Origin: an uncultured Verrucomicrobiota bacterium | GTDB taxonomy: Bacteria; Verrucomicrobiota; Kiritimatiellia; CAIVKH01 | Assembly (NCBI GenBank): GCA_964503335.1 | Contig: CAZCZZ010000002.1 | Coordinates: 50,164 to 114,163, forward strand | Direction: 5' to 3' | DNA length: 64,000 nucleotides | In this document: in pieces, positions 15,123-58,197 of the stretch | Layout of the letters: each line of letters opens with the position of its first letter | How positions within the stretch are numbered: position 1 is the stretch's first letter | Translations under genes and position numbers: made by a program | The notes under the pieces: generated by a model | Databases searched by the model: none | The model's input: the letters and a program-made list of their open reading frames with translations, nothing else | What the model was told of the DNA's origin: nothing

Positions 15123-18100
15123 ATGAGCAGAAACAATTTCAATTGTGCGCGGATCGTGCGCCGAATCCGTACGGCGGTGGTTGCCTTCGCAATGGCTTCT
15201 ACAGTTCTCACCCCCGCATTCGCAGTCACGGTCAACTACTCGCATCGCATCGGCTACTACACCACATTCGCAGGCGGAACTTCAGGCCTCTACAATCACA
15301 GCACAACGAACGAAATTGGTCACTATGCGCAGGGCGATACCGGTCAATCCGTTGGCTGGCGAACGTTCCGCACGGCGGATGGTACCGGTGGGTCCGCGCG
15401 CGAATTGCGGCATGGCGATATTTTCACGATCTCGGTGTTTGGCGATGCCCCTTTTGACGTGCTGGGCATGTCTTTCAATGACGGTGCATCCACAGGTTCA
15501 TGGGCCAATCGTCACAGCAATACGCGCGGCTACGTTCAAACAGGCGCAAACGACGAGAACAACTCGTACGCGAACTGGTACGTGCATCACAACGGGACTG
15601 CCACGGATACGGGCGCGAACCTGGGCGATGAGACGGATGACATCAAGATAGAGATTACCTCCAGCTCGTCCTTCAATGCGCAGGTCGATGGCGGGTCATG
15701 GATCTACAACCTGACGATGCGGAACTCTCCTGGAAATGCGGACCTGGTTGACGGGTATTCGATCTACTACCGGGATGACTGGGATGGTGGCGGGCGGCAA
15801 GATGCGTTCTGGAAGGCGACAACGTCGGTTGAGAACGGCGGCGATGTTCACTTTGGCGGCACGACGGATCTAACGCCGGGCTACATCAACGACGGTCTTG
15901 CCGCGGACAGCACGTCCACAGTCAGCGCGAACAAGCTCTTCAAGTTCGGCTCACATACGCTGACCCTGATCTGGACCAATGACTTCACAGGCAGGGTGCA
16001 GGCCGAGGCGGGCACGCTGAAATTCGGACATGATCGTGCACTCGGCGCGGTTCCCGGATCCGTCCAGGCCAGCAACTTCACCGTTTGGGCCGCCGCGACC
16101 ATCGAAATGACCAACTCGTTTACGATTTCGGCGAACCGTGGGATTCGGATTGAGAACGACGGAAACCCCTCCTTCACCGTCACGCCGTCAGCCTACACGG
16201 TGACCTACGACGGCATCATGACTTCGGATGGCGGTGGCGAGGGCTTCCTCAAGCGCGGTGGTGGTACGCTCCAGCTGGGCGGGAACAACACGTTGGCCGG
16301 TGCGGTCTACATTCTGAATGGAACACTTGCGGTGACGGGAACAGATCCATTCGACACGGCGATTAATGTTGGCGAAACGTCAGGCTCGGACCCCGCCACG
16401 CTCAGTATCGGGAGTGGCTCGACCGTGGTCGACACCACGGTAACGATCCGGGATGGCAGCTCGGGCATCAAGAAAATCGCCGCAACGGAGAGCGGCACCG
16501 TCAGCGGAACGGTGGACTTGCAGGAATCGGACGCCGACAAGATCGAAGTCGACGTGTCCAGCTCCAAGACGCTCACGATCAGCGGCACGATGACGGACAA
16601 TACGGGCGGCGGCGAGGTGACGAAGACCGGGGCGGGAACCTTGGTGTTGTCCAACAGCGGCAACTCCCACGACAAGAAGTTCACCATATCCGCCGGCGTT
16701 CTCAGCATCAGCGCATCTCGCAATCTAGGCGAAGATCCGGGCGGATCCTATGCCGGCAAGGTGACTTTCGCGGGCGGCACGTTGAAGGCGACGGAAACCT
16801 TCACGATGCACGTCAACAATCTTACAACGCTGGACACGGGTGGCGGCACCATCGAAGTGGATTCGACCAAGACGTTGACCTACAACCCGGTGATTTCTGG
16901 CAGCGCAAACCTGACCAAGACCGGCGCCGGCACGCTCACGATGGCCGCAGTGAACACGTATAGCGGCAAGACCATCATCAATGCGGGCACCGTCAACATA
17001 TCGGCTGAAACCGGGCTTGGCGCGAACCCAGGCTCATCCACCGCGGATCAGCTCACGATCAATGGCGGCACACTACAGTCAACGGCGACCCTCACCATCG
17101 ACGACTCCAATCGGGGAGTCACGCTGGGGGCATCCGGTGGCACGATCGATGTGGATTCGGGCACCACGTTGACGTTAACCGATACCATAGCCGGAAGTGG
17201 TGCGTTGACGAAGACGGATGCCGGCCAACTTACGCTCAACAATAGTGGCAACAACACGTATTCCGGCGCCACGACCATAAGCGGCGGTACGGTTCTCATT
17301 GCCAAAGACTCCCATTTGGGTGGTGCGCCCGGTTCGCCCACGGCGGGACACCTCACCATTTCGAGTGGTGCCAAGTTGGAGGTCAATTCGACGGCAGACT
17401 TTTCGATCAGCGCCAATCGCGGCCTCTCCATGGGCTCCGGTGGTGGTGCTATTCGTGTCGCATCAGGGGATACGACGACTTATGACGGCATCATAGCCGG
17501 CAGCGGCGATTTGACCAAAGAACTCGCTGGGACGCTCGTGTTGGGCGGCAATAGCAGCAGCTATTCGGGCAATATAACCGTCTCGAGTGGAACTCTTCAG
17601 ATCGGCAGCCATGGGAATTCATTGGGTGATGCAACGGGAATTACGACGGTGGGCTCTGGCAACACGTTGGCCTTGTCCGGCAGCGGCGTTACAATTCCGG
17701 AACCGATCACGGCACGGGGACTTGGAGCCACCACTGGAATCGGCGCGATCCGCAATATCACGGGAAATAACACGCTCTCCGGGAGGGTCACGGTGAACAC
17801 CACCGCAACCCGCATCAATTCGGATGCAGGAACGCTTACGCTGGATGTTTCCTCCGGCAATGCCCTTGAGTCGACCATGGATCTCACGCTTGGTGGCAGC
17901 GGGAACATCACCATCAATGATCCCCTCACCAATGCTGCGACGAGGACCCTGACCAAGGATGGCACCGGCACGCTCACCCTGAACGGGCTGAATACGTTCA
18001 CCAACCTGGCCACGGTCAGCGCGGGTATCGCGGTGGTGAATGGCAGCAACCCGGCCCCGTTCACGGTTTCGGCGGGTGCCTTTCTGTACGGCACGGGTAT

Positions 18101-21100
18101 CGTCAACACGCTGACTGTGAACGGCCAGATCAGTGGTGGAACGACCTCCAATACGGTCGGACACCTCAAGGCCTCCACAATGACCCTCGCAAACGATGGC
18201 CGCATGCAGGTCAATCTGTCCGCGATGACTGGCACAGCCGGCACGGACTGGGACCTCATCACGGTCGGCGGAGGGTCGGGCACCTACACGGTCAACTCTA
18301 CCGCGGGCGGTGATGAGTTCATCATTGCGCTCAAGGGCAATCCCAGCGGATTCAGCAGTTCGACGGCCTTCACGAACATCATCGTGGATGCCGGGACGGC
18401 GACGAGCTTCGCGACCAACAAGTTCACGGTGGACACGGCTGAATTCACGCCCGCGCTCGGAGGCGGCTCCTTCACCGTCGATGCGGATAGCGGAAACCTT
18501 CGCCTCATCTTCATACCGGGCGTCGCCCCGGATGTGCTGGTGCAGGGCAATGCGACGACGATACCGGACGGCGATGTGGTACCCGACTATGGTGACCACA
18601 CGGACTACGGCGATGTCCTCGTTGACGGCGGAACGTTCTCTCGCACGTTTACGATCACCAACTCGGGGTCAGCTTCGCTCGGCGTAGGCCCCATCACGAC
18701 CAATGCTGTGGGGAATCCCGGCGACTTCATTGTCACATCGCAGCCCGCCGACGCCGTTGCCGTGGGCGGTACCACGACGTTCCAGGTGCAGTTCAATCCG
18801 ACAGCATCCGGCCTGCGCTATACGGAAATCCAGTTCACAAACAACGTCGCCGGCGCGAAGAACCCCTACACATTCTATATCCAGGGTACGGGCACCTATG
18901 TTGAAATCGCCGTGAACGGCAACGGAAACAACATTGCCGATGGATCCACGGCTCCCGCCACATCGAACCACACCGACTTCGGCACCATCGGAACCGCCGG
19001 CGATACGCTTTCGCGAACCTACACCATCACGAACACGGGTAACCGAGCGATGACGCTCGGTAATGTGACGACGAGCGGAACCCATGCGGCCGATTTTATT
19101 GTTACCACGCAGCCTTCCTCGTCGGTTGCCGCGGACGGAAGCACGACCTTTGTGGTGCAGTTCAATCCTTCCGGAAACGGCCTTCGGACGGCGTCGCTCA
19201 GTTTCACGACGACGGACGATGCGGCGAGCGACGGACTCACGGAGAATCCGTTTAACTTCGATGTCCAGGGCACTGGCGCCGGAACCGGCATCTCGAATAT
19301 CCCGACCACGATCACGTTCGAGTCGCTGCTCGGCACGGCGCCGTCGCCGGCGCTTCAGGCGTTCAGCGTGACGAATGTCGGGTTGGGCACGCTGACGTAT
19401 GATCTTTCGACCAATGCCGCCTGGCTATCGGTCAATGCCGTGTCGGGTTCCGCTGCTGCCGGTGCCGGGAACATTCACACAGCCTATGTCGCGCTGGCCG
19501 TCGGCATGACGGCGGGCACATCCAATGCCTTGATCACGACGACGGGGACCGATGGTTTCACGACCAACAGTCCGAAGACCATCGCGGTGACGTGGACACT
19601 CAGTGCGATCACGAACCCGAGTGCGCAAACGGCCACGGCTGACGGCGCCGAGATGGTTCGCCTCGCATGGACGAAGGTGCCCAGTCATGATGTCTTGATC
19701 GTGTACCAGTCCGGTGGAGCGGTATCGACCGATCCGACGCAGGGCACCAGCTACAGCGTGGGCAACACCATCGGATCCGGCACGGTCGTCTATAAGGGAT
19801 CGGGTGCCGCCCTCGAACACATCGTCGCCACCGGTACTGCGCACCACTACAAGTTCTACTCGATCAATAACAATTACTACTCACCCGGCGTGACGGCGAA
19901 TGCGACGACGTTGAGCTACCAGGCGGGTGAGATCGTGGAGCAGTTCAGCTACACAAACACTGTCATCCTTAAGGATCTGAACGGTGGGCAGGGCTTCACG
20001 AATGCATGGTCCCTCAGCGTGCCGAATACGAACACCGATATCGTGGTGGACAGTGTGAATTTCTCAACCTTCCAGTCGTCCTGGCCGACCGAGCGAGGCA
20101 ACCGGATAGTGGTCAAGACTGTGGCTACGACGAACTACCAGGCCTTCCGCGGCATCAACACCGTGAATTGCGGACAGGTCTATATCGCGGCCCTCATCCG
20201 CCGCCAGTTCGATGAGGGCGCGGGCGACAACAAGTTCCAGGTCCTGAGCTTCATGAATGGCTCGACGGAGGTCGCCACAGTCGGCAAGCGAGGCGCCGGC
20301 AATGACCAGTTTGGAACGCGGTCGGGAAGCGATACGGACCTCTATGGCGCGGAGAACTCGTTCATGGACGACATCGATTTCCTTGTCATCGGCCGGTACG
20401 ACTTCGATACGGGCGTGATGTCCGGTATTTTCTATGACAATGCGACCAGTGTTCCGTCCAATGAACCTACCTACCTCGTCTCGTCGACCGATACACCCGT
20501 GAGCCAGATCACGGGCATCCGCATTGCCGCGGGTGCGGCGGTCAACGGTTGGCCCGGCGAATGTCACTTTGACGAAATCCGCGTGGCCCGCAACTGGGGC
20601 GACCTGCTCAAGTTGCTGTCGCCCGTCGTAACTAACTACTCGATTGATGGCGACAACGGTGTAACCGATGGCCAGATGACGAACGGCAGCTACGTTGTGA
20701 GCGTGGACCTCAACACCGCGGCAGGCGTCGATACAGATGGCACGCCCATCGCCACGACATTCGACCTTGTCAATCCGACCGGCACGGCGGTTGTGAACAA
20801 CGACACGTTCGGGTTCTTCACCTATAATTCAGCTTCATCGGTCACGGCGACGGATGTGAATCACGCCATCACTTCGGCGAACAATGCCTTGGGCATCTAC
20901 ACCGTCCGTGTCTCGGCGGTTTCATCCAATGGCGGCCAGATCATCGATAACAGGTTCGTCGGCAATGTCTGCACCGGAACGGTGATGACATTCACGGTGA
21001 CGGATGATGATACCGCAGCGCCTACCTTCGGCGTCTTCACGGCAATGGGTCGCGATATGTCCGGCTCGACCTACACGAGCGATACGTTTGCGGGCGGCTT

Positions 21101-37307: not shown

Positions 37308-38180
37308 GTGATGACCAGATCTGGGCTCAATTTATTGCCGGGGTGTATCGTTTTACTTGGCTCGCTGTTTGCAGGCTTTGTAGAGGCGCAGGATTTTCCT
37401 CTCTACGTCGCATCGAAGTATGTCATCGAGGATGAGGATGATCAGCCACTTCGGGGACTCGATCCAGCGGGAGAGGCCCTTGGACTCCCGAGGGAGAAGG
37501 GTGCCGTCGTTCAAATCCTCGGCGCAAGCGCCGGAATCTTCCCGCCCAATGCCGACGGTTCGCCCAATCTGCAGAATCCCTTGCTGGGCACTACACGTAC
37601 TGGCATCGGTGCCGCTCTTTCGCTCTCTGCGCGCGGTCGATTTGGCGCGACCGTTGTGCCCCGACCCACAACGCCTGTATTCGTCCGCGTATTTAATGGG
37701 CCGGAACTCGCGCTTGCGACGCGTTATGGCGATTCCCAGACCTTTGTGAGCGTGGACAACACGCCGTTTCTCGCCGACATCGAGGAGACGGGCGCTGCAT
37801 TTGCGACGGACAGCGATGGCGACGGACTGAACAACTACTACGAGGGCCTGCTCGGCTCAAACGCCAACCTGACCGACAGCGATGGCGACGGCGTGGCGGA
37901 CGGAGACGAGTACCGCGCTGGCTCTGGAATCGCCAACCCCTCCTCGTTCCTCGGCATCACCACGTTGAAGAAGGAAGCTTCCGGTTTCTGGACCATCGGT
38001 TGGGAATCCTCGACCGGGCGCACCTACTGCGTCGAATACAGCGGAATCGGCCTCTGCCAGGGACCAATCTACTCGATGGTCTGTCCCATGGTCACCGCTA
38101 CGAGCACCACGACCACCGTCCAGGCATCGATCCCCGGATCCGGCGGCGACGGCCATTTCCGCGTGAGGTTGATGGAATGA
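37308..38180 (+). CDS. Small secreted protein (290 aa) with a signal peptide and a dockerin-like double Ca2+-loop C-terminal module. Its stop overlaps the start of the downstream giant gene.
   Basis: N-terminal 'LNLLPGCIVLLGSLFAGFVEA' signal peptide; 'DSDGDGLNNYYEGLLGSNANLTDSDGDGVADGDEY' double loop. The TGA at 38178-38180 overlaps the ATG at 38177-38179. Confidence 0.7.
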   Translation: MMTRSGLNLLPGCIVLLGSLFAGFVEAQDFPLYVASKYVIEDEDDQPLRGLDPAGEALGLPREKGAVVQILGASAGIFPPNADGSPNLQNPLLGTTRTGIGAALSLSARGRFGATVVPRPTTPVFVRVFNGPELALATRYGDSQTFVSVDNTPFLADIEETGAAFATDSDGDGLNNYYEGLLGSNANLTDSDGDGVADGDEYRAGSGIANPSSFLGITTLKKEASGFWTIGWESSTGRTYCVEYSGIGLCQGPIYSMVCPMVTATSTTTTVQASIPGSGGDGHFRVRLME

Positions 38181-50100: not shown

Positions 50101-53100
50101 CGACGGACAGATCGCGTCCGGCGGCTACGTTGTCACGTCCCGTGTCAGCGACGCCACCAGCGGTATCGCCGTGAGCAATGCGTTCGCCCCCAGTTACCTC
50201 ATCCTCAACCAGCTCGGCAACCTCGTGGTCTCGAACACCTTCACCACGCCCTTCGCAAACGGCGGAGGCCTGACGCTCACATCGGTGTATTCGACCGCCG
50301 CCGCGGCTGTCAGCACCAACGTGGTCACGTTGGGGATCTATACGACAACGGTCTATGTGACGGACGCCGATGCGGACCGGAACGGCGACCGACTTTCCAG
50401 CACCGGCACGCCGTTCAGTTTCACGGTGATCGATGATGACACGAACGCGCCTGTTGTTTCGGCCTTCCAGCTTGCGGGCGGCACAACCAACTTTGACCTG
50501 AGCCTTGGCTCCATCGCCATAACCGGTCTCCTGACCGATGCATCGAGCGTTCAGTACGGCGGCCTCACCCACATCCTGCTCCTCGACAACACCGGAGGCA
50601 TTGCCCAGAGCAACAGACTCTTCGCCGGCACTGGCTCGGCGGCTACCGGCACGCTGTCCGACGCCGGACTGAACTGCGGCAACATCTATACGGTCCGGCT
50701 GTTCGCGGCGGACGCCGACCTTGATCGTCCCGCGGACCAGCTCTTCGTGACGAACATGGCCCTGGTGATCCAGACCACAGGCACGGGCGGTCCCGCAGAC
50801 TATCCGATCGCGAGCAACCTGCTGGTAAGCGGCTCCACGGCGGCGCCGACGACCACGGTATTCGACGCAACCATTCGCACGGGCGGTTGGAGCCTCGCCA
50901 TGAGCCTGTCGCATCCCGTGGGCGTGTTTACCAATGCGACATCGCCGTCGTTCCGTGTGACCAACCTGGTCGCAGAGGTTATTGCGTTGATGCCCTGGAG
51001 CAACGCGGTGCAGTCGGGCAACACCTACTTCTTCACGAACGCGCCGCTGCCCGGCGCGGCCTACGCATCAGTCAACACGGGCATCCATTTCGTGGTGTGG
51101 TCCGCCAGCAACCAGGGCTCGTGCGTGGCCAGCATCATCGACCGTCCCGTCATCACCGGTGGCACGAACGTATTCGCGGTCGTGGATGAAGACGAGGCCG
51201 TGCCGGTCCTGAGCGGCTTCACGCTCCCGGGCGGAGGCAGCACAGTCTCTGTGGCGACTGCGTTCTCCGGATTTGCCATCACGGGCCTGATCCAGGACGC
51301 GGGCAGCGGCGTGGCCTTCACCTCGCAGCCGCCCTATGCCCTGTTCTATGACGTCAGCGGAAGCGTGCTGGCGAGCAACGCGATGCTTGGCGGAACGGAG
51401 GGCAATGGAACGTCGCCCGTCGCGTTCACCAACTGGTTCTCCGGCATCACCCTGAGCTGTGGAAACTTCTACACGGTGCGGGTCTTTGCGGCGGATGCGG
51501 ATAATGACCGCGCCAGCGACCGGACCTCGGTGAGCACCAATGTCATGGTCGTGGCGACGGAAGGATCCGGCGGCGATGCGCCGACAGCGCAGGACCTCCT
51601 CGTCAACAACACGGCCGCATCGTCTGTAACGCTGTACGACGAAACGATCGCTACAGGCGGATGGCAGGTTGCCCTCGTCATGTCGCACTCCTCGGGCAAT
51701 ATCGTCACCAACGGCCCGAATGCCCCTTCGTTCCTCGTCCAGAACCAGACAGGAACGCATGTCTATTCCACCTCTCCGCTGGTCTGGAGCAACATCGTGA
51801 AGTCAGGCGTGACGTACTACGCGACGAACACGCCGATGCCCGCAGCCAACACAAACTGGATTACGACGGGAACGTACAGCTTTGTCTGGTCCGCCCAGAG
51901 CGACGGTCTCTGCTTTGGAGTGACCAACGGAAGCGGCAATATCAACCCCGGGACGAACAAGTTCCTCGTGGTCGACGACGATGTGATTCCGCCGAACATG
52001 TCCGGCATCAGCGTGGCAGGGGGTACAGGCTCGGTGAGCGGTGCCTCGGACTGCGCGGACCCCACGGCGACCAATCTCCTCGCGGGAGACATAGCGATCT
52101 ATGCGATCAATACCAAGACAGGGTCGGGCACAAACAACGACAGCTTCGCCTTTGTGGCCCTCGTCGATATTCCGACCGGAACGCAGATCAAGTTCACCGA
52201 CAACGGATGGAAGAGCAGCACCGCATCGTTCCGCAATAACGAGGGCACGATTACCTGGATGGCGACGGGCTGTGTCCCTGCGGGCACATCCATTCGCTGG
52301 ATCGCCACGAACACGCCGCTGGTGAGCAGCGGGCAGATCATCGCCACCAACGGAACGTTCGCCCCCAACATCCAGGGCGAGCAGATCCTCGCGTATCAGG
52401 GATCTGAAAGCAGCCCGAACTTCCTGTATGCGGTCAACGACCGCCTGAACGGCATCTGGGACGTGGACGCGGTTGACTCCCATTCGTCCGCGATTCCTCC
52501 CGGCCTGATCGATGGCTACACGGCTGTAGCCGTCGGCGAGTTTGATAACATCATCATCAACACGAACAACCTCACGATCACCGGGGATCGAGACCAGATC
52601 CTCTATTACATTGGCGACAAAGACAACTGGATCGGGTCCGACACCAATGTGTTCGATCTTCTCCAGTTCAACTTCACATTCCCCGACGCCAACGCGGGCG
52701 GTGGCGCAGTAACGGACCAGGACATTCTGTTCGGCGGCTGGAGCATCACGGGCCTCGTGCAGGATGTCGGGAGCGGATTGCTCGTCAGCAACGGTCCCGC
52801 GCTTCGCTATGTCGTCCTGAACACGAACTCCGGCGTCGTGGTGTCCAACTACTTCTACACGACCTTCACGAATGGCACGAAGGTCGAGCAGAACCTCTCC
52901 AATGCGGTGAGCGCAGGCAGCTACAGTCTCAACCAGCTCGGCACCTTCACGGCCCAGCTCTACGCGGCGGATGCCGATGTGGACCGGATCGCAGACCACG
53001 CCGAGCGCAATACGAACGTGCCGTTCCAGGTTGTTGATGATGACACGGACTACCCGCAGATCGGCTTCTTCTATATCAACGGCCAGACCACGATCACCAA

Positions 53101-55474
53101 TCCGGCTGAACTGAGCAGCGTTGTCCTTTCCGGTCAGGTGCGCGACGTGACCAGCGGTATCGCTTTTACGTCGGAACCTCCGACCTACGCCATCCTGGAT
53201 TCAACAGGCGGAGTGGCCGCAAGCGGTGGATTCACCTACGGCCCGACCAACGAGGGCGCCGGATTGAATTGGACCAACCTGTGGACGACGAACCTGAACC
53301 TGACCGGGATCGCCGACTGCGGAACGTACACTGTGCGCGTGACGATCGCAGACGCCGACAATGACCGACCAGTGGATCGCCGTGAAACGAATCTCACTTT
53401 CCTTATCAGCGTGGCGAGCGGAAATGGGTCCGCCCCGATCGCGAGCAACCTTCTGGTTAATGCGACGGCGGCAAGCGCCGCCTCGATCAGCGATGCCACG
53501 GTGGCGGCCGGCGGGTGGTCGCTTGCGGTCAGCATGTATCATCCATCCGGTCTCCGGATCGACGCTCCGTACACGCCCACGTTCGTTCTGCGCAATGCGG
53601 CAGTGACGGGCGTGTCGACGCAGGAATGGACGAACATCGTGACGGCGGGCTCGAGCATGTATGCGACGAACAGCAACATGCCGGCCATCGGCTATTCGAG
53701 TATCGATACCGGCTACTACACCGTGGTCTGGTCCGCCCGCAGCCAGGGCTCCTGCTTCGGCGAAACGAATTTCTGCCCGTTCATCAATGGCGATACGAAC
53801 CGATTCCTCGTGTTTGACGACGACGTCACGGCGCCGGCCAATCCTTCCAACGTCGCATCACCCGCGGCCTACTGGACGAACCTGGCGAACGTGCAGGTTT
53901 CATGGCTTACCAACAACATCTCAGACGCTTCCAGCATGAGCTTCTACATCACGACCAACCGCACGGTACCGGTGTCGACGGCGGGCGGCGTGACGCTCGG
54001 CATGACCAATGCCTACATCTTCACCAACGCGGCGGAAGGCGTGTACACGAACTGGGTCTTTGCGGCCGACGCCGACAACGACCGCGTGAGCGACTCGCTC
54101 ATGAGCGCGATCACGAGCTTCGTCATGTACGTGGACCGCACGGCGCCGACGCAGGTTGTGTCCTTTGCCGCAGTTGTCGGCGCCAACGACAATACGTCGG
54201 AAATCGATCTCAACTGGGGCCCGCTGGCCGACGCAGGCAACAGCAACCTTTCGCCGTGGGCCAGCTACATTGTGTATTACACGGACGAGGCGACCGGGCC
54301 GTTTACGACCAGCAGCTATGTCACAGCGATGAACGGTGGACCTGCCGGGTTGGGGACCAACACGACGAGCAGCATCACGCTGCAGAATTTCGAGTTCGAC
54401 ACGACCTATCGCGTGGCGATCGCAGGCATGGATCGAGCCGGCAACATCGGGCCGATGTCCACGACCCAAACCGTTACGCTTGGCGTGTTTGCCCTCACGC
54501 AGGGTCTCGCCGCTGTCACGGAGGACGTGGATCTCTACCACACCGCCGTCACGGGCAAGCAGTACGACCTGATCTATGTGGATGCCGTGACCTTCGCGGA
54601 TTCGCTGACGAGCTACTGGAACCTGGCCCAGAGCGGGCAGGGCACGTATCGCTACGACACGGGCGCTGCATCGCGCGTTCCTCCGATCGATCTCGGGGGC
54701 GCCACGATGCGGTTCTATCGCGCGGCGCAGGAAGGTCGCTGGACCATCACCAACGTCCCGAACCGCGTTGCGAGCGTCGAGGTGTATGCGGCAAAACCCC
54801 TCACGTTGTCGCCGGGGCAGAACTTCGTCTCGCTCTTCGCGATTCCCGACACGAATCGCGTGGACTTCATCCTCGGCACGAACAAGCTTCCCGCCGGCGG
54901 CACGCTTGCCACGAGCACCGTCGTATCCTTCTATGGCGTCTCGACAAACGGTCACCCCGACGCCGTGTCGATCTGGCTCAGCGACGGAGGCTATTGGTTG
55001 TACAGCACGGGCGGCTTGGCGAATCACCAGTCGCTTCCGCTGTACGAAGGATTCAACATAGCGCTGCCGACCAGCGCTTCGACCCAGAAGGTCCTGCTTG
55101 TGGGACGTATTCCGACGAACACCGTCGTGCAGTCGCTTTCGCCCAACGCGTACAATGTCGTGAGCTACACCGTGCCGCGGCGGATGAGGGTATCCGAGCT
55201 GGGGCTGCGTGAGGCAGGACTCACCACGGGAGCGACACCTTCCACGGCCGACGAGATCCGCATCCTGCAACGCGGCCTCGGCTCCCTCACCACGCCGAAG
55301 GTGCGCATCATCCACAACGGCACGAACTTCGTCACATGGCCCGCGAAAACGAGCGCGAATAACTATATGATCGAAGCTGACGACGCCATTATCATCTACC
55401 GCCGTCCCGGCAGCACCATGAGCTGGACCAACAAGCTGTATTACACACCGCCTGTGCGGAACATGAATCCGTAG
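38177..55474 (+). CDS. Giant secreted multidomain surface protein 2 (~5760 aa), a paralogue of giant 1. It has an N-terminal beta-sandwich module, choice-of-anchor-D-like, BACON-like/FN3/LamG-like super-modules, a Calx-beta domain, an EEP (DNase I-like) domain, FN3-like domains, cadherin-like DxDxDR modules and the shared ~330-aa C-terminal tail.
   Basis: Uninterrupted 17.3-kb ORF. The start is uncertain: ATG 38177 (ATGA overlap with the upstream gene) gives a long N-region before the hydrophobic stretch 'ALRVAALATVLTGSVSHA'. The ORF-track start 38000 would overlap the upstream gene by 180 nt and lacks a signal peptide. An internal GTG start (~38250) cannot be excluded. Confidence 0.85.
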   Translation: MISRDSQADETRGLGVEYPIRWSINVAIEPRSDRHARSTCLRQRGWATHSALRVAALATVLTGSVSHAELLLGFDLLGQGGSQVTTTNTVAAANISTAAPNARITRGSGLQSSTASDSMSSSSWTLPGAATVANAITSNDYFTVRVVPEAGYLIDVTNFSWRTTRSGTGPTNYNLRAGNDGFASDIATWLNKGTTSNFVTTVNITGSTGVEFRIYGYSTHNNGGTARIAHGADFGQSGIDLAIFGTVNASGPDVGVLGNNTLVADGDTTPAYADHTDFGNVGLNQSNLVRTFTITNSGTASLGVGNITTSGTHAADFIVIAQPSNALAAGTISTFQVRFDPSATGTRTATIQFTNDAAGKSPYDFVVQGTGVAAGILRSPTSITVTTMVGTALGTSSFGVTNVGLGRLDYTISTNAAWLSVSPTSANLAETGGQQETITYSVTGLSGGTSNATVTITDSNASNSPQTVSVSLVLTNIPDPTAQSATGDGKEMMRLAWTKHSSFNVMIVYQLGSAPASPQQGTAYSVGDSVSGGGTVVYSGTGATLEHVVRTNATHYYAFYSINNNHYSPGVSANAATPAYGDGEIVDAIAYTNGVTINGVNGGNGWTSAWSVGSGTWTAETSSLTVETNYPTEYANRIRVADPGNGGQPYATRKFAAQSSGTLYMAAIVSYQYQGPWKFAGFSFVSNATEKVFIGKIPNSENNRFGLTSTRNATDYKTSGVTLGDFNTSTGNVYLMIGTYDFSTRDFKAKVYLRTTVVPETEPGSWDVATNLPANYANSIDGIRLASGALGAPDGSIGQTLYDEIRVATNWAGLLRIVAEPEIAVLGTNNAVVTSGDASPATADGTDFGNVNFAGSVSFTNVFSITNSGNANLVLTSISTSSAMGASADFTVISWPTTVLAGTRSNLVIAFNPETTGLRTALVSIANNDSDENPYTFVVQGTGTGYFETITFQGFEGSGTDTWNYLFVSNNPGTEIYVDGSTNASGLYAVALRGSASSNADPYVEFDNIDISAYAVVTLQVAFAVAGIDSGDDLELDLSYDGGTTWNGPGSTTLVFGANNTNLGFTGIGSTTVASNPWFVSLPSTSKQVKVRIRLDESSNDNSFDRTFADNIRLTGANAAPRVRFSAATYYTTETNGTVTIPVTISSSADATVRVALAGSALINSTNDYTVNGTNIIFAAGGTTTSNVVLTLVDDTAAEGLEEINLQLVNGQGTVPGDSAVTVVLLQDDDAFSVMSANLTAGTNIVDGTYTYDETAQRIIRRLRPDVLAIQEWKFTNASARAFVDSVLGTNYYYYIEPESDPNPIPNGVISRWPITVSNQWTDTFVGARDHVQVTIDIPGPRDLHVVSTHLKAGTSDAATRLDQVRELTNYIATAAFPTNDYLVVAGDLNLTNRTETTFVVLTQVVTDARQPADTEGNVNSSLGKTSPFDHVLPNNVLNNVHLTNRMAGFAFTNGMIFDTAQFDDHLLPALVEDSYPTNRAHHAVLKLFNLSTAAVPPTVTTTIASATNLTTATSGGNVTSDGGASVTNRGVVWSTSPGPTVPGLQTTNGTGTGSFSSTLTNLTPGGTYYYKAFAQNSVGTGYGAEYSLTTPCFSGIVTGLLVTVTNDIDFTLTWSNVQYATGFQLDVATSATFSTSGTQDDFTDGDFTNNPAWSGDATGYTNLTAGTLPSGVASTDGNYIGNPASTSGNNIMTIASSETSEWRFSLGSTTFSPSSANHFGVILMSDNAVQGDVTTNSFNGYYLRVGVDGATDYLELWRSSGTTKTKIGDYTTPGNFGADGLEDGLDLRITRNGSGVFELFYATGFTYASTPTSNGGTLTNTTHSSSSYFGVYSRFANTGRRVYIDNIQLGSGSSSYVAGYSNRAVGATSATVTGLTSGATYYYRVRATNEYCVSANSVTGTVTTVLLAPDIAVYGNNTLIADGDTTPAYADHTDFGSVGFINSNLVRTFTITNTGTGSLTLANVTTSGTAAADFIVLSQPSTPVAAGGTTTFQLRFDPSATGLRTATVQFANNVTGKNPYDFVVQGTGVAAGILRSPTSISVTSMVGSAPAAAGFGVTNVGLGQLIYTISTNAPWLSVSPTGDTLWETEGQQHTVSFSVTGYGAGTSNATVTITDSNASNSPQTIAVSMVLTNIPDATSNVATNDGSELIRIAWTKPGSLDVMIVHRGTNAPVAPTQGTAYNVGDAVGSGGGRVVYKGGGAYLDHVVNPGSDNYYVFYAVNNNHYSPGVTNVATTPAYGASERVEQFGYTNGVSLSGLGGGNLFTSTWSVGAGNFTVLSNGPTPNLYANTNYSAEAAQRVVSSNYVNDTEMRASRRFAAITNGSIYISYLVAVEYGGAGKYTGVRALSNTTERFFVGEGGGNDLLAIDGYGGGIQNTAFNINSFQSNTGNVYLVVARYIFSSNHVSVKGYYRTDTVPEAEPASWDTSVTASSDRSYIDGIEIVSGGFSGNQPGLVAFDEIRVSTNWAGIVPPSGVPGIGVNPSSVTVSVMRGSSPAAQTFTVTNVGQGALNYSISTSVSWIAVAPVAGSLSAFLGQIHTSSFNTVSLPVGTNIATVTVTAPLASNSPVTVTYNVIVTNIPPPTNVIASADGYEMVRLGWSPPPGLPTVMILHDDVPIATDPSQGTLYNVDSAVGLARVIYKGTNTSLEHIVAPGSTNHYAFYAVNGNYYSTDGSYTVIECPDTTATNLVAGDIAIFGLNTLTSGSTNYDSFGFITLTDLPTGTAINFTDNGWRSNDTFRTGEGTITWSATSCVPAGTVIRWISTNTPQVTVGSITTNSSFAPNIDGEQVLAYQGPATNPTFIYALGSHTDGVWHVDATDTHESALPRGLTNGLTAVVIAELNNVVISTNTLAISGDRAAILSYFGNTNNWVGDDSIIFDLLAYNFSFPDLNTSGGGVMTNVTMGLYRTNEIVDVFAYTNGNSISSPARNGGWGWTSTWTGAAGTWTALTNNTAEISFPSQPLYPTNAANILKLTDPGVSTTGRMHRYFQAVTNGSLYFSGFLSYQYEGFNKFAGFSFMSGGAETGFMGKISSPSHSFTLGIDTYGGSRVFAAYDLRGQENSTNNTYLIVGKYDFDTDLITVQSYYRGVAVPDTEPADWAATATVSGAGISLIDGIRVHGGADVGTIGNCYFDEIRVASSWGALINRNPPTVLTRPVSNILISAATGGGEVTSDGGATVTNRGVVYSTNALPVLTDSRTSDGTGTGIYASVMTNLIAGETYYVRAYAQNAAGTSFGAVSNFTTLCFTSVVTGLYANPTNSTDFTANWSALTGAARYQLDVSSVSNFTGNAPNYGVEVFTNIGGGTSSSYLQRNWTNNNIAWSAFGARTDQTIDGAAIALEDASGAYIVSGSITGGISELSVVHQMKFSGVGSTFDIFVNSTKVATNVAFDANIQTARVTGINVSGSFTISISNRATSAEQLALDTLTWTNDSSAGSFIAGYDSRSVTGTSQSVTGLLEGATYYFRVRAVGGGSCVSGNSSTVTVVTVDNRGPSLFAFNVDNRTNTDAMIRNGFAVTGLVYDAGYGVSNGVSTPYYLIRNNAGTTVAASNKFTTAPANGSVVTGNLAGTFSAVPQADVTLGIYTAIVGAVDLVPNVSVSNFFFTVVDDDTNIPEQVTLMSTNTGGGNLRFMQISIGAANITLGGGATSNLFYPTTDGALAAVAAANPLLFWMGARDESGLNRGTSTPTTNMNFTLDAIVISNTANFDATRSSSFASTTNTRATNVWAWTSPFTSDELTTLITNTVNGLGTNRISLSLFDADDDRIGDALTLIDRQYGYLVVTDDDTVVPTVGSTDINGVGAAGQLYTIFTETMGTAGTSGESIATHETNNRFDNTAFTMSGTGDARTTTASTGYDGASGSFNILLNAVGETFIIADINSSAYTNMSLVFGVYKSSTSENGSSLVVEVSTNGTTWNTLTIPALPTGAGTADWYSRTNSAGTIPSGTNLQIRFTGNTTSELRLDDVKLINLITDVSLTDGQIASGGYVVTSRVSDATSGIAVSNAFAPSYLILNQLGNLVVSNTFTTPFANGGGLTLTSVYSTAAAAVSTNVVTLGIYTTTVYVTDADADRNGDRLSSTGTPFSFTVIDDDTNAPVVSAFQLAGGTTNFDLSLGSIAITGLLTDASSVQYGGLTHILLLDNTGGIAQSNRLFAGTGSAATGTLSDAGLNCGNIYTVRLFAADADLDRPADQLFVTNMALVIQTTGTGGPADYPIASNLLVSGSTAAPTTTVFDATIRTGGWSLAMSLSHPVGVFTNATSPSFRVTNLVAEVIALMPWSNAVQSGNTYFFTNAPLPGAAYASVNTGIHFVVWSASNQGSCVASIIDRPVITGGTNVFAVVDEDEAVPVLSGFTLPGGGSTVSVATAFSGFAITGLIQDAGSGVAFTSQPPYALFYDVSGSVLASNAMLGGTEGNGTSPVAFTNWFSGITLSCGNFYTVRVFAADADNDRASDRTSVSTNVMVVATEGSGGDAPTAQDLLVNNTAASSVTLYDETIATGGWQVALVMSHSSGNIVTNGPNAPSFLVQNQTGTHVYSTSPLVWSNIVKSGVTYYATNTPMPAANTNWITTGTYSFVWSAQSDGLCFGVTNGSGNINPGTNKFLVVDDDVIPPNMSGISVAGGTGSVSGASDCADPTATNLLAGDIAIYAINTKTGSGTNNDSFAFVALVDIPTGTQIKFTDNGWKSSTASFRNNEGTITWMATGCVPAGTSIRWIATNTPLVSSGQIIATNGTFAPNIQGEQILAYQGSESSPNFLYAVNDRLNGIWDVDAVDSHSSAIPPGLIDGYTAVAVGEFDNIIINTNNLTITGDRDQILYYIGDKDNWIGSDTNVFDLLQFNFTFPDANAGGGAVTDQDILFGGWSITGLVQDVGSGLLVSNGPALRYVVLNTNSGVVVSNYFYTTFTNGTKVEQNLSNAVSAGSYSLNQLGTFTAQLYAADADVDRIADHAERNTNVPFQVVDDDTDYPQIGFFYINGQTTITNPAELSSVVLSGQVRDVTSGIAFTSEPPTYAILDSTGGVAASGGFTYGPTNEGAGLNWTNLWTTNLNLTGIADCGTYTVRVTIADADNDRPVDRRETNLTFLISVASGNGSAPIASNLLVNATAASAASISDATVAAGGWSLAVSMYHPSGLRIDAPYTPTFVLRNAAVTGVSTQEWTNIVTAGSSMYATNSNMPAIGYSSIDTGYYTVVWSARSQGSCFGETNFCPFINGDTNRFLVFDDDVTAPANPSNVASPAAYWTNLANVQVSWLTNNISDASSMSFYITTNRTVPVSTAGGVTLGMTNAYIFTNAAEGVYTNWVFAADADNDRVSDSLMSAITSFVMYVDRTAPTQVVSFAAVVGANDNTSEIDLNWGPLADAGNSNLSPWASYIVYYTDEATGPFTTSSYVTAMNGGPAGLGTNTTSSITLQNFEFDTTYRVAIAGMDRAGNIGPMSTTQTVTLGVFALTQGLAAVTEDVDLYHTAVTGKQYDLIYVDAVTFADSLTSYWNLAQSGQGTYRYDTGAASRVPPIDLGGATMRFYRAAQEGRWTITNVPNRVASVEVYAAKPLTLSPGQNFVSLFAIPDTNRVDFILGTNKLPAGGTLATSTVVSFYGVSTNGHPDAVSIWLSDGGYWLYSTGGLANHQSLPLYEGFNIALPTSASTQKVLLVGRIPTNTVVQSLSPNAYNVVSYTVPRRMRVSELGLREAGLTTGATPSTADEIRILQRGLGSLTTPKVRIIHNGTNFVTWPAKTSANNYMIEADDAIIIYRRPGSTMSWTNKLYYTPPVRNMNP
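41525..41865 (+). other. Calx-beta domain in giant protein 2.
   Basis: 'APRVRFSAATYYTTETNGTVTIPVTISSSADATVRVALAGSALINSTNDYTV...NVVLTLVDDTAAEGLEEINLQLVN...VTVVLLQDDD' has the Calx-beta layout, ending in the DDD motif. Confidence 0.7.
41870..42650 (+). other. Endonuclease/exonuclease/phosphatase (EEP, DNase I-like) domain in giant protein 2.
   Basis: Catalytic landmarks in order: 'VMSANL', 'VLAIQEW', 'VVSTHLKAG', 'VVAGDLNL', 'SPFDHVL' (Asn/Glu/His/Asp-Asn/Asp-His). Confidence 0.8.
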
Positions 55475-55503
55475 GGCATCCGTCCCCCATTCCAGGAGAA
55501 GAT

Positions 55504-58197
55504 ATGAAAAACATCGCAGTCTGTATTGTCGCCATGCTCCTGGCCCTTCACGACGTTGGAGCTGCCCAGATTGGCATCTACACATTCACCGGTGCCACGG
55601 GCGACGAGGCCACGTTGCCTGTAGACACACAGCCCAGCAACGCCGTCTTCTCGGTCATGAGCCGTGGGTCGGGATTGACCGCCTCAGCCGCGGCGAACAC
55701 GTTCAGCGCATCGGGTTGGACCACGGGCGCGCTGGACACGAATGACTACTACGAATTCTCGATTACGCCTGCCGACGGCGCATCCGCTACGTACACAAAT
55801 CTCAGCTTCACGGAGAGGCGGTCCGGCACGGGAATCGGCTCGTGGTTGCTTGCCAGCAGCCTTGATGGCTACGCGAGTGGCATTACAAACTTCACGGTGC
55901 CGGATAACACATCGGACCGGAATCACTCCATCCTGTTAGGGCCGGCATTTGCCGGTCTGTCATCCATCGTGACCTTCCGCTTGTATGGGTTTACCTCCGA
56001 GGCAGCCGGCGGGACGTGGCGCGTCGATAACGTCGCGTTGTCCGGCGACATCACGGGTGGCGGAGGCGGACCAGCAACCAATGTACAGTTCACAGCCTCG
56101 TCAGCATCCGTGAGCGAAGCGGCGGGTTCGTACACTGTCACGGTGTTCAAGACGACCGCGGACGGCAATGTAAGCGGGGAGGTCGCGATAAGCGGCACAG
56201 CCACCCAGGGAATCAGCGACGACTACACGATCGACACGACGAACTTCACCATGAATGGCGCGACGACATCAGCGACGTTTGTCGTCACACTCAACAACGA
56301 TACGAACACAGAGCCGTCGAAGACTGTGGGCCTGACCCTGGCCAATGTCACCGGCGGTACGATCGTTTCGCCTTCCGTCTTTACGCTGACGATCACGGAT
56401 GATGATGTCCCGCCGGTCCCCGCCGAGGGCATCGCGGCGTTCCGCTTCACCTCCGGTCCGCATCTCGCCGTGACGACGAAAGAGACGAACATCACTGTAA
56501 CGACAGTCGCGTTGTCGAGTGGGACCATTGAAACCAATCAGACGACGGGCACGGTGTTCCCGAATGAGCCGTTCATTCAGGAATCGTCCTGGACAGCGTC
56601 GAGCCAGGCGTCGGCCAAACGGTTCCAATTCACAATCACGCCTGATTCGGGTTACCAGGTGTCGGTCACCGGCATCAGCTTCCGCGCGCTTGCCACGGGT
56701 TCCGGGCCGACTGCGTTTGGCTACGACATCGGAGGGCTCGCCAGTTTTGCAGCGAACTTCACGAACGATGTACTCGTCGTTGTGAGCCAGTCTGTTGCGG
56801 GAGTTGATAACCAGACAGGTCCCGTCCTGATCCAGATTCAGGGCTGGACCAATGGAACGCGTGCTTCCAGCGGCGTGGGCGATTTTCGTCTCGATGATGT
56901 CGTTGTTTTCGGAACCATCGAAACCGCCGCAGTGACGACGAACGTCCGCTTCACGGCGTCATCGGCCACCGTCGGCGAAGCTGCCGGCACGCACAATGTC
57001 ACCGTCTTCAAGAATCTTGCCGACGGGAACGTGTCCGGCGAAATTGGCCTGGGCGGCTCTGCCACGATCGGTGGCGGAAACGACTACACGATCAACACCA
57101 CGAATTTCGCCCTCAACGGCGCCACAACCTCCGCGACCTTCACGATCACCATCAACGACGACGCGGCGGTCGAATCGACGGAAACGGTAGTCCTGACCCT
57201 GGCCAATGTGACCGGTGGCGATGTGGCGTCACCCTCAGTCTATACGCTGAGCATCACGAACAACGATGTGGCCCCCCCACCGTCATTCAACGTGTGGATC
57301 AATGAGCTGCACTACGACAATCAGGGTCCGGATACAGACGATGGGTTCGAAATTGCTGGCGCATCGGGGACAGACCTCTCCAGCTACAACCTGCTCCTCT
57401 ACAATGGCAGCGTACCTGGTACGATTGGCCAAGTGTACAGTAACCGTGTGCTGTCTGGAGTCATACCCAATCAGTCGAATGGCTATGGTGCGGTGTGGTT
57501 CAGCTATGACAATGGTGCCGGAAACGGTACTCAGAACGGTCCGGATGGCGTAGCCCTTGTCGTAAACACCACAACCGTAATTCAATTCCTCAGCTATGAG
57601 GGGACCATTCTCGCCGTCAACGGGGCGGCATCCGGAATGACATCCGAGGATATCGGTGTCGTGGAAGCCGGGACAGGGACCAATTTGACGGTGCTGAACA
57701 ATTCACTCCAGTTGTGTGGTACCGGCACGAATTACGCATCATTCGCATGGGCGACGAATTCGCCCAATACCCGCGGTCTGATCAATGCCTGCCAGTCGAT
57801 TCCCGGCGGCGGTGGTGGCACGGATGACGATGGCGACCTGCTGCCGAATGACTGGGAGACGCAGTATTTCGGCGGCGCGACGAATGCCACGGCGAATGCG
57901 GACAACGACAGTGATACGTACCTGAACATCGAGGAGTTTGTCGCGGGCAGCGTGCCGACGAACGGCTTGTCGTATCCCCGCGTGAGCGTGGTGACCGGGG
58001 TGGCGGCGGGTCAGCAGGTTCAGTTCCCATCCACGACAGGTCGCTTGTATTGGGTCGATTACCGCACGAACCTGCTTGCGGGTGACTGGCAGAATCTGCA
58101 GTCGAACGTGGCCGGATCGGGCGCGACGCTGCTCATCACCGACACGAACGGTGCACCGCAGAACAGCTACCGCTTCGGCGTGAAGATGGCGCCCTGA
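55504..58197 (+). CDS. Secreted 897-aa protein: signal peptide; two copies of an N-terminal beta-sandwich module, each followed by a Calx-beta domain; a lamin-tail domain (LTD); a dockerin-like double Ca2+ loop; and the shared C-terminal beta-domain.
   Basis: AGGAGA RBS 8 nt upstream of ATG 55504. 'MKNIAVCIVAMLLALHDVGAA' is a signal peptide. LTD signature 'VWINELHYDNQGPDTDDGFEIAGASGTDLSSYNLLLYNG'. Calx-beta units end in 'TLTITDDD' and 'TLSITNND'. Confidence 0.85.
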   Translation: MKNIAVCIVAMLLALHDVGAAQIGIYTFTGATGDEATLPVDTQPSNAVFSVMSRGSGLTASAAANTFSASGWTTGALDTNDYYEFSITPADGASATYTNLSFTERRSGTGIGSWLLASSLDGYASGITNFTVPDNTSDRNHSILLGPAFAGLSSIVTFRLYGFTSEAAGGTWRVDNVALSGDITGGGGGPATNVQFTASSASVSEAAGSYTVTVFKTTADGNVSGEVAISGTATQGISDDYTIDTTNFTMNGATTSATFVVTLNNDTNTEPSKTVGLTLANVTGGTIVSPSVFTLTITDDDVPPVPAEGIAAFRFTSGPHLAVTTKETNITVTTVALSSGTIETNQTTGTVFPNEPFIQESSWTASSQASAKRFQFTITPDSGYQVSVTGISFRALATGSGPTAFGYDIGGLASFAANFTNDVLVVVSQSVAGVDNQTGPVLIQIQGWTNGTRASSGVGDFRLDDVVVFGTIETAAVTTNVRFTASSATVGEAAGTHNVTVFKNLADGNVSGEIGLGGSATIGGGNDYTINTTNFALNGATTSATFTITINDDAAVESTETVVLTLANVTGGDVASPSVYTLSITNNDVAPPPSFNVWINELHYDNQGPDTDDGFEIAGASGTDLSSYNLLLYNGSVPGTIGQVYSNRVLSGVIPNQSNGYGAVWFSYDNGAGNGTQNGPDGVALVVNTTTVIQFLSYEGTILAVNGAASGMTSEDIGVVEAGTGTNLTVLNNSLQLCGTGTNYASFAWATNSPNTRGLINACQSIPGGGGGTDDDGDLLPNDWETQYFGGATNATANADNDSDTYLNIEEFVAGSVPTNGLSYPRVSVVTGVAAGQQVQFPSTTGRLYWVDYRTNLLAGDWQNLQSNVAGSGATLLITDTNGAPQNSYRFGVKMAP
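57288..57700 (+). other. Lamin-tail domain (LTD) in the 897-aa protein.
   Basis: 'INELHYDN...D..FEI.G.....LS.Y.L.LYNG' matches the LTD consensus found in ExeM/NucH-type extracellular nucleases. Confidence 0.7.

Follow-up and report, generated by a model that had tools for sequence, protein, structure and literature searches.

Giant, probably surface-displayed proteins of Kiritimatiellia share a C-terminal module and partner genes and carry optional predicted phosphodiesterase domains

Introduction

What purpose could be served by two neighbouring genes that encode secreted proteins of several thousand amino acids (aa), each with a hydrolase-like domain embedded in it? The question is raised by a 64,000-nucleotide stretch of DNA (hereafter the window) from an uncultured Verrucomicrobiota bacterium (GTDB lineage Kiritimatiellia; CAIVKH01), corresponding to positions 50,164 to 114,163 of contig CAZCZZ010000002.1 in assembly GCA_964503335.1. 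Giant 1, a gene for a 290-aa protein, giant 2 and a gene for an 897-aa protein follow one another there in the same orientation. An earlier sequence-only reading, made without database searches, proposed that the locus encodes a split version of the ExeM/NucH extracellular nucleases, with a phospholipase D (PLD) superfamily domain in giant 1, an endonuclease/exonuclease/phosphatase (EEP) domain in giant 2 and a lamin-tail domain (LTD) in the 897-aa protein. Kiritimatiellia occur widely and degrade complex organic matter anaerobically; to our knowledge, almost nothing is known of their cell surface. In this work, we analyzed the family to which the giants belong, their partner genes and relatives, and the two putative enzymes.

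Results

Both giants belong to a large, uncatalogued family

The map of open reading frames (ORFs) places the four + strand genes exactly where the sequence-only reading had put them. That reading counted three mega-proteins in this range; two are found there, and the third giant lies upstream, outside it (Table 1). Giants 1 and 2 are two paralogues of a large, lineage-restricted and uncatalogued family. Its hallmark is a C-terminal module of ~570 aa, made up of an Ig domain with a VDDDxDRxND motif, an fn3 domain, a beta-sandwich ending in MRFYRV and a terminal domain of ~270 aa. Both giants show this order, align along the entire module with the family members P0001 and P0002, and are 41% identical to each other over 579 aa.

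An exhaustive profile search with the module across 1.84 billion cluster representatives returned 508 proteins at E ≤ 1e-3 and 214 at E ≤ 1e-30. Giant 1, which is identical to the database protein P0125 (7311 aa, with a gene call beginning at GTG 15096), was the third-best match. A word-indexed search retrieved only four relatives, swamped by low-complexity candidates. Most family members are 2,000–7,600 aa long and carry the module at the extreme C-terminus. Among the best 150 representatives, which are the basis of the tail and enzyme counts out of 150 given here, 86 chains close with P-x-[KR]-x-x-x-P (PGKNINP, PGKNFNP and PTKNFTP are typical), the usual form being P-x-[KR]-N-x-x-P. A locus scan limited to one genome per species gave 20 loci, all in metagenome-assembled genomes of Kiritimatiellia, Verrucomicrobiota or Lentisphaerae, with several family members per genome, often in tandem.

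The module has no Pfam or NCBIfam model and no relative in the PDB by sequence. The terminal domain folds confidently in an AlphaFold2 model (predicted local distance difference test, pLDDT, 85), and the model of the module is not a barrel and has no structural neighbour in the PDB. No description of the family, the module or its partner genes was found in the literature searched, in Pfam or in NCBIfam.

Two unusual gene calls were seen among the relatives. P0003 joins a flagellin-like N-terminus to the C-terminal module and has a frameshifted end; it probably reflects a chimera or an error in gene calling. In L002, an LTD-bearing ORF (146–1570) overlaps an ORF with the C-terminal module (1534–3453), and the pair looks like one giant split by a frameshift.

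The giants are modular scaffolds

All four proteins of the locus start with a Sec-type signal-like hydrophobic segment. None of them contains a further membrane segment, and the composition of the giants is marked by abundant T, S, G and N and by little K. Pfam and NCBIfam scans detected PATR repeats, choice-of-anchor D/HYDIN Ig domains, BACON_2, fn3 and the PLD domain in giant 1, and three choice-of-anchor D domains, BACON_2, Calx-beta, fn3 and one Exo_endo_phos domain in giant 2. These signal-like segments, composition and domain repertoire agree with the earlier description of secreted, adhesin-like, modular proteins. Hidden Markov model (HMM) matches likewise bear out the Calx-beta domains (one in giant 2 and two in the 897-aa protein) and the choice-of-anchor D domains of both giants; the LamG-like and cadherin-like modules that had been proposed alongside them found no HMM support.

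The choice-of-anchor D/HYDIN domain listed for giant 1 in Table 1 opens a cassette of ~450–600 aa that is repeated in both giants, with 41–44% identity between them. The N-terminal module, rightly recognised before as common to giant 2 and the 897-aa protein, is duplicated in the latter together with Calx-beta (43% over 248 aa) and recurs at the N-termini of giants at three other loci (L003, L005 and L022). Identity between DNA repeats within the locus does not exceed ~83%, over short stretches, and the giant ORFs therefore do not look like assembly artefacts.

A small TSP3 protein is the most constant partner of the giants

Gene order was compared by tblastn and ORF maps of the loci, together with the gene tables of four further loci, and the families of the giants, the 290-aa TSP3 protein, the 897-aa protein and the TPR membrane protein encoded downstream of it (Table 1) proved to be syntenic across related genomes. 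The lack of co-conservation by which the earlier reading would have been refuted is therefore not seen at the level of gene families. The following arrangements were found: (i) giant, 290-like gene, giant in L016 and L022/L004; (ii) giant, 290-like gene, 897-like gene, TPR gene on the opposite strand in L013 and L012; (iii) giant, 290-like gene, opposed TPR gene, sucC, sucD in L004, where the downstream genes of the window are matched at 71–83% identity; (iv) giant, EEP-bearing giant, 290-like gene, a 741-aa gene, opposed TPR gene in L030; (v) opposed TPR gene, 290-like gene, PLD-bearing giant, 290-like gene in L031, where the small gene stops 4 nt before the giant; and (vi) two successive giants without an intervening small gene in L003, L005, L009 and L015. 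Homologues of the 290-aa protein adjoin giants in L004, L010, L012, L013, L016, L021, L022, L029, L030 and L031, and this family is the most constant partner of the giants. Homologues of the TPR membrane protein occupy the same position in L013 (36% identity), L004 (34%) and L030 (36%). The 897-aa protein has orthologues in L012 (46–58%) and L013 (51%), each following a 290-like gene. A Rosetta-stone fusion of the 290-aa protein to a giant was sought, and none was found.

In L029, the locus of the PLD and LTD giant P0222, a nucleotidyltransferase/NTase-substrate-binding pair stands between the 290-like gene and the giant (8863–9574), and a PilM/secretin cluster and another protein, of 3358 aa with Laminin_G_3, are encoded downstream (31863–36359).

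Members of the 290-aa family consist of a conserved small N-terminal domain (…ARVFNxP…FYxDSQxF), TSP3 repeats and a short C-terminal domain; the 290-aa protein itself yields only a weak TSP3_bac match in Pfam. As had been noted, the locus holds two classes of C-terminus, the module of the giants being one and the other being shared by the 290-aa protein, the 897-aa protein and the upstream 2819-aa protein. This second class comprises TSP3 repeats and a domain of ~80 aa ending in RFYR/FRVRL, which has no Pfam or NCBIfam model and may be a lineage-specific sorting or anchoring tail. Its pattern, W..G..Y.V.Y......W........RFYRV..P, is seen at window positions 37900–38177, 57900–58194 and 10880–11119. 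The same domain ends stand-alone PLD proteins (P0006, P0012, P0021 and P0033), and a related copy lies inside the C-terminal module of the giants (MRFYRV).

The LTD assigned earlier to the 897-aa protein was recovered by an indirect route. Two Calx-beta domains are the only direct Pfam matches of this protein, and no direct match to LTD (PF00932) appears even at E ≤ 10; a PDB sequence search with the region gave no useful match. The region (aa 596–770) has 255 homologues, most of them proteins of ~210–265 aa with type IX secretion system or PEP-CTERM tails. With one of them, P0272, it shares 49% identity over 172 aa; the part of P0272 so aligned reaches 48.8 bits on the Pfam LTD model (cut-off 34.3), and four further homologues score 23–32 bits, under the cut-off. 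Transitively, via P0272, the region is thus a putative divergent LTD.

The PLD domain of giant 1 resembles stand-alone secreted proteins

The earlier call of a complete double-HKD PLD domain in giant 1 holds. PLD superfamily proteins carry two HxK(x)4D(x)6G(S/T)xN motifs per chain, or one per subunit. PLDc_2 matches giant 1 twice, with 51.6 and 51.7 bits (cut-off 27; 1.1e-13 each), and both HKD motifs are canonical (HNKLGLFD...ASWN at H2841 and HAKYMIID...GSAN at H3038); a 53-sequence alignment shows no change in the catalytic H, K, D, G, S and N. The model of the domain (pLDDT 92) has the PLD fold. Its top fold match is the PLD of Serratia plymuthica (7E0M; PMC8004604) with a score of 30.0, followed by the human PLD4 5'-3' exonuclease (28.4), Vaccinia F13 (26.9), phosphatidylserine synthase (25.0) and, per half, Nuc, NucT and Zucchini (17–18). 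Judged by this model, the PLD fold is certain; the substrate is not. HKD nucleases of the Nuc/NucT type are defined by a match to a curated model and a single-HKD homodimer architecture, and the giant 1 domain scores 18.2 bits on the NucT model NF010493 (cut-off 351) and is a fused two-HKD chain.

By sequence, the domain (381 aa) is 45–59% identical to more than 200 stand-alone proteins of ~470–480 aa from Kiritimatiellia, Lentisphaerae and Verrucomicrobiota, which consist of a signal peptide, a two-HKD domain and a short RFYR-type C-terminal domain; the closest of them (~475 aa) reach 57–59%. Every giant-borne PLD has its nearer relatives among the stand-alone PLDs rather than in other giants, which suggests that the giant 1 domain derives from a common stand-alone secreted PLD and that giants have captured such domains repeatedly. 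The genes of the stand-alone PLDs stand in varied, housekeeping contexts. An S1/P1 nuclease gene lies near them in two of four contexts (L023, 1227–2126; L024, 8337–9332; L025, 378–1373), and the L024/L025 context also holds an RRM protein. The S1/P1 adjacency is a suggestive, inconsistent link to nucleic acids, and we downgraded it as functional evidence because it is present in just two of the four contexts.

The EEP domain of giant 2 has no nuclease-type match

Giant 2 had been credited with an EEP domain of the DNase I-like kind. The EEP assignment stands: the PF03372 profile matches above its threshold (Table 1), and the catalytic Asn, Glu, His, Asp, Asn, Asp and His can be assigned to the candidate residues N1297, E1331, H1409, D1447, N1449, D1489 and H1541, which do not vary among six giants; P0267, the seventh copy, is degenerate and has lost several of them. 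The "DNase I-like" label is unsupported, because no DNase I or ExeM/NucH-type model matches the region in NCBIfam or PDB sequence searches, and APE1 appears in the latter only at E~0.8. The specific sequence relatives, all weak, are the bacterial sphingomyelinase C/beta-toxin enzymes of Bacillus, Listeria and Staphylococcus. PDB sphingomyelinases are matched at 7e-6 with the single sequence and 2.6e-4 with the profile, and the matches to 2ddr and 2uyr cover core residues 102–199 only. The neutral sphingomyelinase C model TIGR03395 scores 25.8 bits (cut-off 248.2; 6.5e-6), and this sub-cut-off sphingomyelin phosphodiesterase hit is the sole NCBIfam match in the region. An ExeM/NucH-type protein unites, in one polypeptide, an LTD and a nuclease-type EEP domain that matches a curated nuclease model; no LTD was detected in giant 2. 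We consider the domain a predicted EEP phosphodiesterase with no specificity assigned.

The catalytic residues of both enzymes, whose state had been proposed as a check, are intact and are kept in most homologues, and both domains look catalytically competent on that account.

The enzymes are optional cargo

PLD domains occur in three of the 150 family representatives (giant 1 itself, P0222 and P0198) and EEP domains in six (P0140, P0155, P0167, P0181, P0232 and P0267). A domain scan (E ≤ 1e-5) of 12 other giants, 49 thousand residues altogether, found scaffold domains only and no enzyme in any of the 12. The comparison of orthologues points the same way. The giant 2 orthologue in L003 is 66% identical over its first ~1000 aa and colinear thereafter, and skips the Calx-beta and EEP segment; in the L005 orthologue (55–72%) the segment just past the EEP domain is kept at 72% and the EEP domain is missing; and the syntenic ACE_NR_VERR3 locus (L004) has an entire second giant without either enzyme. 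The block that contains the EEP domain (giant 2 aa 872–1700) is 69–71% identical to P0155 and P0140, the remainder of those proteins being 34–54% identical and rearranged. The block behaves as a mobile cassette.

PLD and EEP giants are never found together in the four other loci that have a giant of either kind: L030 and L032 each have a first giant that lacks a PLD, and no EEP giant adjoins those with a PLD in L029 and L031. Each of these loci having just one enzyme, the PLD and EEP pairing is seen only in this window. An LTD is present in ~14 of the 150 representatives, and the majority of these lack an enzyme. P0167 combines an EEP domain (1162–1422) and an LTD (1575–1690) in one chain, and P0140, P0155 and P0222 also combine an LTD with an enzyme. 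P0167 and P0222, both of 5781 aa with an enzyme at ~1160, were considered as a cargo-swap pair and rejected, as they are not close relatives.

Flanks of the locus

The locus is flanked upstream by pnp and downstream by the TPR membrane gene, after which sucC and sucD come (Table 1). The upstream 2819-aa protein also contains CglD/TSP3-like repeats and has a short C-terminal domain ending in RFYRIDVRLPQ; it is predicted to be a multi-enzyme alpha-glucan-degrading surface protein, and its C-terminus class is unlike that of giants 1 and 2. The intergenic region between pnp and giant 1 (14203–15122, ~920 bp) has a G+C content of 0.54, against ~61% in the window; it contains weak promoter-like sites and no Rfam or tRNA match, in keeping with the Rfam and tRNA scans as a whole, which gave no match. 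Scans for promoters and terminators yielded nothing informative. A 264-aa ORF on the minus strand (60290–61084), between the TPR gene and sucC, has a signal-like segment, no family match and a weak likeness to a stretch of L013 (34% over 74 aa).

Table 1. Coordinates of the genes and domains of the locus and its flanks, in window positions
Feature	Position	Strand	Description
Third giant, 2819 aa	2663-11122	+	GH13 alpha-amylase (N-terminal) and GH57 domains; upstream of the range first described
pnp	12019-14202	-	Upstream flank of the locus
Giant 1	ORF 14946-37031, ATG 15123	+	7361-aa ORF; ATG start MSRNNFNCARIVRRIRTAVVAFAMASTVLTPAFA; ~7300 aa
PATR/autotransporter-associated beta-strand repeats, giant 1	16617-17297	+	ORF aa 558-784; PF12951 3.8e-27, TIGR02601 1.1e-31
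Choice-of-anchor D/HYDIN-type Ig domain, giant 1	18903-19223	+	NF012200 7.6e-36
Double-HKD PLD-superfamily domain, giant 1	23133-24275	+	aa 2730-3110; catalytic His codons 23466-23468 and 24057-24059
Family C-terminal module, giant 1	35313-37031	+	Ig with VDDDxDRxND, fn3, beta-sandwich ending MRFYRV, ~270-aa terminal domain ending PGRNINP
290-aa gene	37308-38180	+	Signal, small N-terminal domain, TSP3 calcium-binding repeats, ~80-aa C-terminal domain
Giant 2	ORF 38000-55474	+	5824-aa ORF; ~5765 aa from ATG 38177
N-terminal module, giant 2	38486-38860	+	blastp aa 163-287 vs 897-aa protein aa 52-174, 33% identity, 4e-11
Calx-beta, giant 2	41528-41863	+	PF03160 28.3 bits (cut-off 27); directly before the EEP domain
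Predicted EEP-superfamily phosphodiesterase domain, giant 2	41867-42649	+	aa 1290-1550; PF03372 37.9 bits (cut-off 24.5), 2.2e-9
Family C-terminal module, giant 2	53870-55474	+	Ends PVRNMNP; 41% identical to the giant 1 module
897-aa gene	55504-58197	+	Two copies of N-terminal module plus Calx-beta, putative divergent LTD, TSP3 repeats, ~80-aa C-terminal domain
Putative divergent lamin-tail-like domain (LTD), 897-aa protein	57289-57813	+	aa 596-770, begins NVWINELHYDNQGPDTDDGFEI
TPR membrane protein	58218-60206	-	Polytopic, at least 6 hydrophobic segments; C-terminal TPR repeats (TPR_16); convergent with the locus

Discussion

Taken together, these results point towards a family of giant surface fibres with a conserved tail, partner genes and optional phosphodiesterase cargo, a reading that we consider probable. 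The giants would leave the cytoplasm via the Sec pathway and would then be displayed on, or released from, the cell surface as long arrays of beta-sandwich domains (PATR, choice-of-anchor D/HYDIN Ig, BACON, fn3 and Calx-beta). The most likely role of their ~570-aa C-terminal module is in sorting, anchoring or assembly at the cell surface, and their genes appear to travel with that of a small, presumably calcium-binding TSP3 protein, often also with those of an LTD/Calx-beta protein and a TPR membrane protein. Into this scaffold, optional enzyme cassettes could be taken: a PLD of the stand-alone type in giant 1 and a mobile Calx-beta and EEP block in giant 2. The pair most likely displays phosphodiester cleavage on a long surface fibre that binds and digests an extracellular substrate, which might be DNA or RNA, phospholipid or sphingolipid, or phosphodiester-linked glycans. 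We infer the roles of the C-terminal module and of the 290-aa protein, as well as the substrate, and regard nucleic acid, membrane lipid and other phosphodiesters such as phosphoglycans as comparably likely; the last is plausible because Kiritimatiellia degrade glycans.

Several observations weigh against this interpretation. First, surface anchoring is deduced from composition and domain types, the window contains no secretion-system genes, and no cultured organism carries the giant family. Second, the C-terminal module is internal in ~10% of members, with more fn3-like repeats after it, which weakens a strict reading of the module as a C-terminal signal. In such members (P0132, P0135, P0147, P0158, P0167 and P0168), the final motif becomes ...PPVLQITN..., after which the chain runs on for 400–700 aa with repeats of the type NPNGL..YG.TTNYG. 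Third, most family members are free of enzymes, and the activities of PLD and EEP may be peripheral to the core role of the family. Fourth, giant 2 has Ala in its EEP domain where most EEP enzymes have Asp before the last catalytic His; in the alignment of six giants this position is Ala or Thr. Finally, the 290-aa gene and the giant 2 ORF overlap at ATGA (38177–38180), where an in-frame ATG of giant 2 runs into the stop codon of the small gene. Counted from this ATG, ~70 residues stand before the signal-like segment, and a GTG near 38251, ~75 nt downstream, would give a shorter leader. The start codon of giant 2 is hence uncertain, and the translational coupling of the two genes is on that account only apparent.

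A bolder version holds that the C-terminal module, the TSP3 protein and the TPR membrane protein form an undescribed system for the sorting, anchoring or assembly of giant fibres in Kiritimatiellia and related bacteria of the PVC superphylum, and that PLD and EEP cassettes have been recruited repeatedly from stand-alone secreted genes. We put this forward tentatively, as a possibility.

The strongest of the competing explanations is the one from which this analysis started, that of a dedicated apparatus for capturing and degrading extracellular DNA, in which a Nuc-like PLD, a DNase I-like EEP domain and a DNA-binding LTD would be spread over co-operating scaffolds. The idea is kept alive by the true LTDs that stand beside the enzymes, or in one chain with them, in relatives (P0167, P0140, P0155 and P0222), LTDs being common in the family; the S1/P1 nuclease genes near half of the stand-alone PLD contexts also speak for it. 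However, the LTD is found in many non-nuclease secreted proteins as well, and the S1/P1 adjacency is missing in the other two contexts. The NucT model stays far below its cut-off, a phospholipase leads the fold matches of the PLD, and the specific matches of the EEP domain are to sphingomyelinases rather than to DNase I or ExeM/NucH-type enzymes. Above all, the split nuclease system of the sequence-only reading does not survive the comparison of relatives, in which the enzymes are sporadic (3 and 6 of 150), absent from syntenic orthologues and most family members, and paired in this window only. As optional cargo, PLD and EEP do not make up a conserved DNA-degrading machine, and a nuclease function is one possibility instead of a demonstrated architecture, given that the enzymes are sporadic and the EEP domain is not nuclease-like by sequence. 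We therefore regard a dedicated DNA apparatus as doubtful.

Targeting of membrane lipids, by a fibre-held PLD phospholipase together with an EEP domain of the sphingomyelinase or phospholipase C type that would attack membranes of other cells or host material, or scavenge phosphate and head groups from lipids, draws on the best EEP matches in the PDB and NCBIfam, those to the sphingomyelinase C and beta-toxin enzymes. These matches cover the conserved EEP core only and score a tenth of the family cut-off, nucleases score almost as high as phospholipases among the fold matches of the PLD, the proteins revealed no element for lipid binding or membrane insertion, and the sporadic occurrence of the enzymes counts here too. 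This explanation seems rather unlikely to us.

Could the giants instead be plain adhesins or matrix or envelope fibres for attachment or biofilm structure, with the enzyme domains as incidental passengers? Their composition and domain repertoire are typical of adhesins, all 12 of the other giants scanned have scaffold domains only, and the EEP copy of P0267 has lost several catalytic residues. Nevertheless, the catalytic residues are invariant in six of seven EEP copies and in all three giant-borne PLDs, and the higher conservation of the EEP block relative to its surroundings argues for selection on the enzyme, so that we hold this explanation to be improbable. Polymorphic toxins of contact-dependent competition, suggested by very large secreted proteins with hydrolase domains and a small, possible immunity gene directly after, are highly improbable, as the enzyme domains are internal and conservation peaks at the C-terminus, the reverse of what polymorphic toxins show; a signal peptide and TSP3 repeats mark the 290-aa protein, which is kept beside enzyme-free giants; and Pfam and NCBIfam scans revealed no type Vb secretion, type VI secretion or Rhs markers.

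Returning to the fibre family with optional cargo, its interest lies less in the enzymes than in the conserved tail and the partner genes, which are the higher-value lead: the family comprises hundreds of clusters outside the domain databases, and its tail and partners could define a way of displaying huge proteins. It would also offer a case of modular evolution, in which a stand-alone secreted PLD and a mobile EEP block were grafted into a scaffold in a few lineages. If the enzymes do act on DNA or lipids at the surface, this would bear on phosphorus scavenging in sediments and guts.

The locus can be compared with several known systems. ExeM, NucH and Xds are secreted extracellular nucleases that combine an LTD with an EEP domain. 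Some relatives of giant 2 resemble them in having both domains in one chain. In giant 2 itself, by contrast, no LTD is detectable, the putative LTD of the locus is divergent and located in a separate protein, no nuclease family model matches the EEP domain, and the host protein is ~10 times larger. With bacterial neutral sphingomyelinase C and beta-toxin, which provide the best EEP matches among solved structures and NCBIfam models, the likeness is confined to the conserved core: the score is far under the family cut-off, and the substrate-specific elements were not identified. As for the PLD of giant 1, its sequence identity to Nuc/NucT/Zucchini, PLD3/PLD4 and 7E0M is just 14–26%, and, unlike known HKD phosphodiesterases, it lies within a 7300-aa protein, at residue ~2730; its true relatives are the uncharacterised secreted PLDs of ~475 aa from Kiritimatiellia, Lentisphaerae and Verrucomicrobiota.

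Three classes of large secreted proteins were considered and rejected as assignments. Type V autotransporters end in an outer-membrane beta-barrel translocator domain; giant 1 shares PATR repeats with autotransporter passengers, but Pfam and NCBIfam reveal no autotransporter barrel, and the C-terminal model is not a barrel. RTX adhesins of type I secretion systems lack a Sec signal, carry C-terminal RTX repeats and a secretion signal, and have adjacent ABC/MFP/TolC genes. The giants resemble LapA, SiiE and MpIBP in their very long arrays of Ig-like or calcium-binding modules, presumed to extend from the surface. They differ from them in their signal-like N-terminal segments of Sec type, in the lack of RTX matches, in their neighbours (pnp, the TPR protein and sucCD, with no adjacent type I secretion or TpsB genes) and, as from giant adhesins generally, in their uncatalogued C-terminal module. 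In polymorphic toxins of the CDI/Rhs-like kind, the C-terminal toxin domain varies and the gene of a cognate cytoplasmic immunity protein comes next; here the C-terminus is conserved and the downstream 290-aa protein is predicted to be secreted.

The closest parallel is found in the giants of the PVC (Planctomycetota-Verrucomicrobiota-Chlamydiota) bacteria, described as "giant genes" in Planctomycetota and also in Omnitrophota, Elusimicrobiota and Verrucomicrobiota (West-Roberts et al. 2023, bioRxiv 10.1101/2023.11.21.568195). Like giants 1 and 2, these are secreted proteins of several thousand residues with repeated beta-sandwich modules and embedded hydrolytic domains, and they have been read as surface structures. 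The proteins of that survey have transmembrane anchors and SecA- or C39-type domains, which giants 1 and 2 are without, and the survey makes no mention of Kiritimatiellia, of PLD or EEP cargo or of the C-terminal module described here. Giant surface proteins of PVC bacteria with embedded hydrolases are already known; what appears to be new, judged by the literature searched, Pfam and NCBIfam, is this giant family with its C-terminal module and partner genes.

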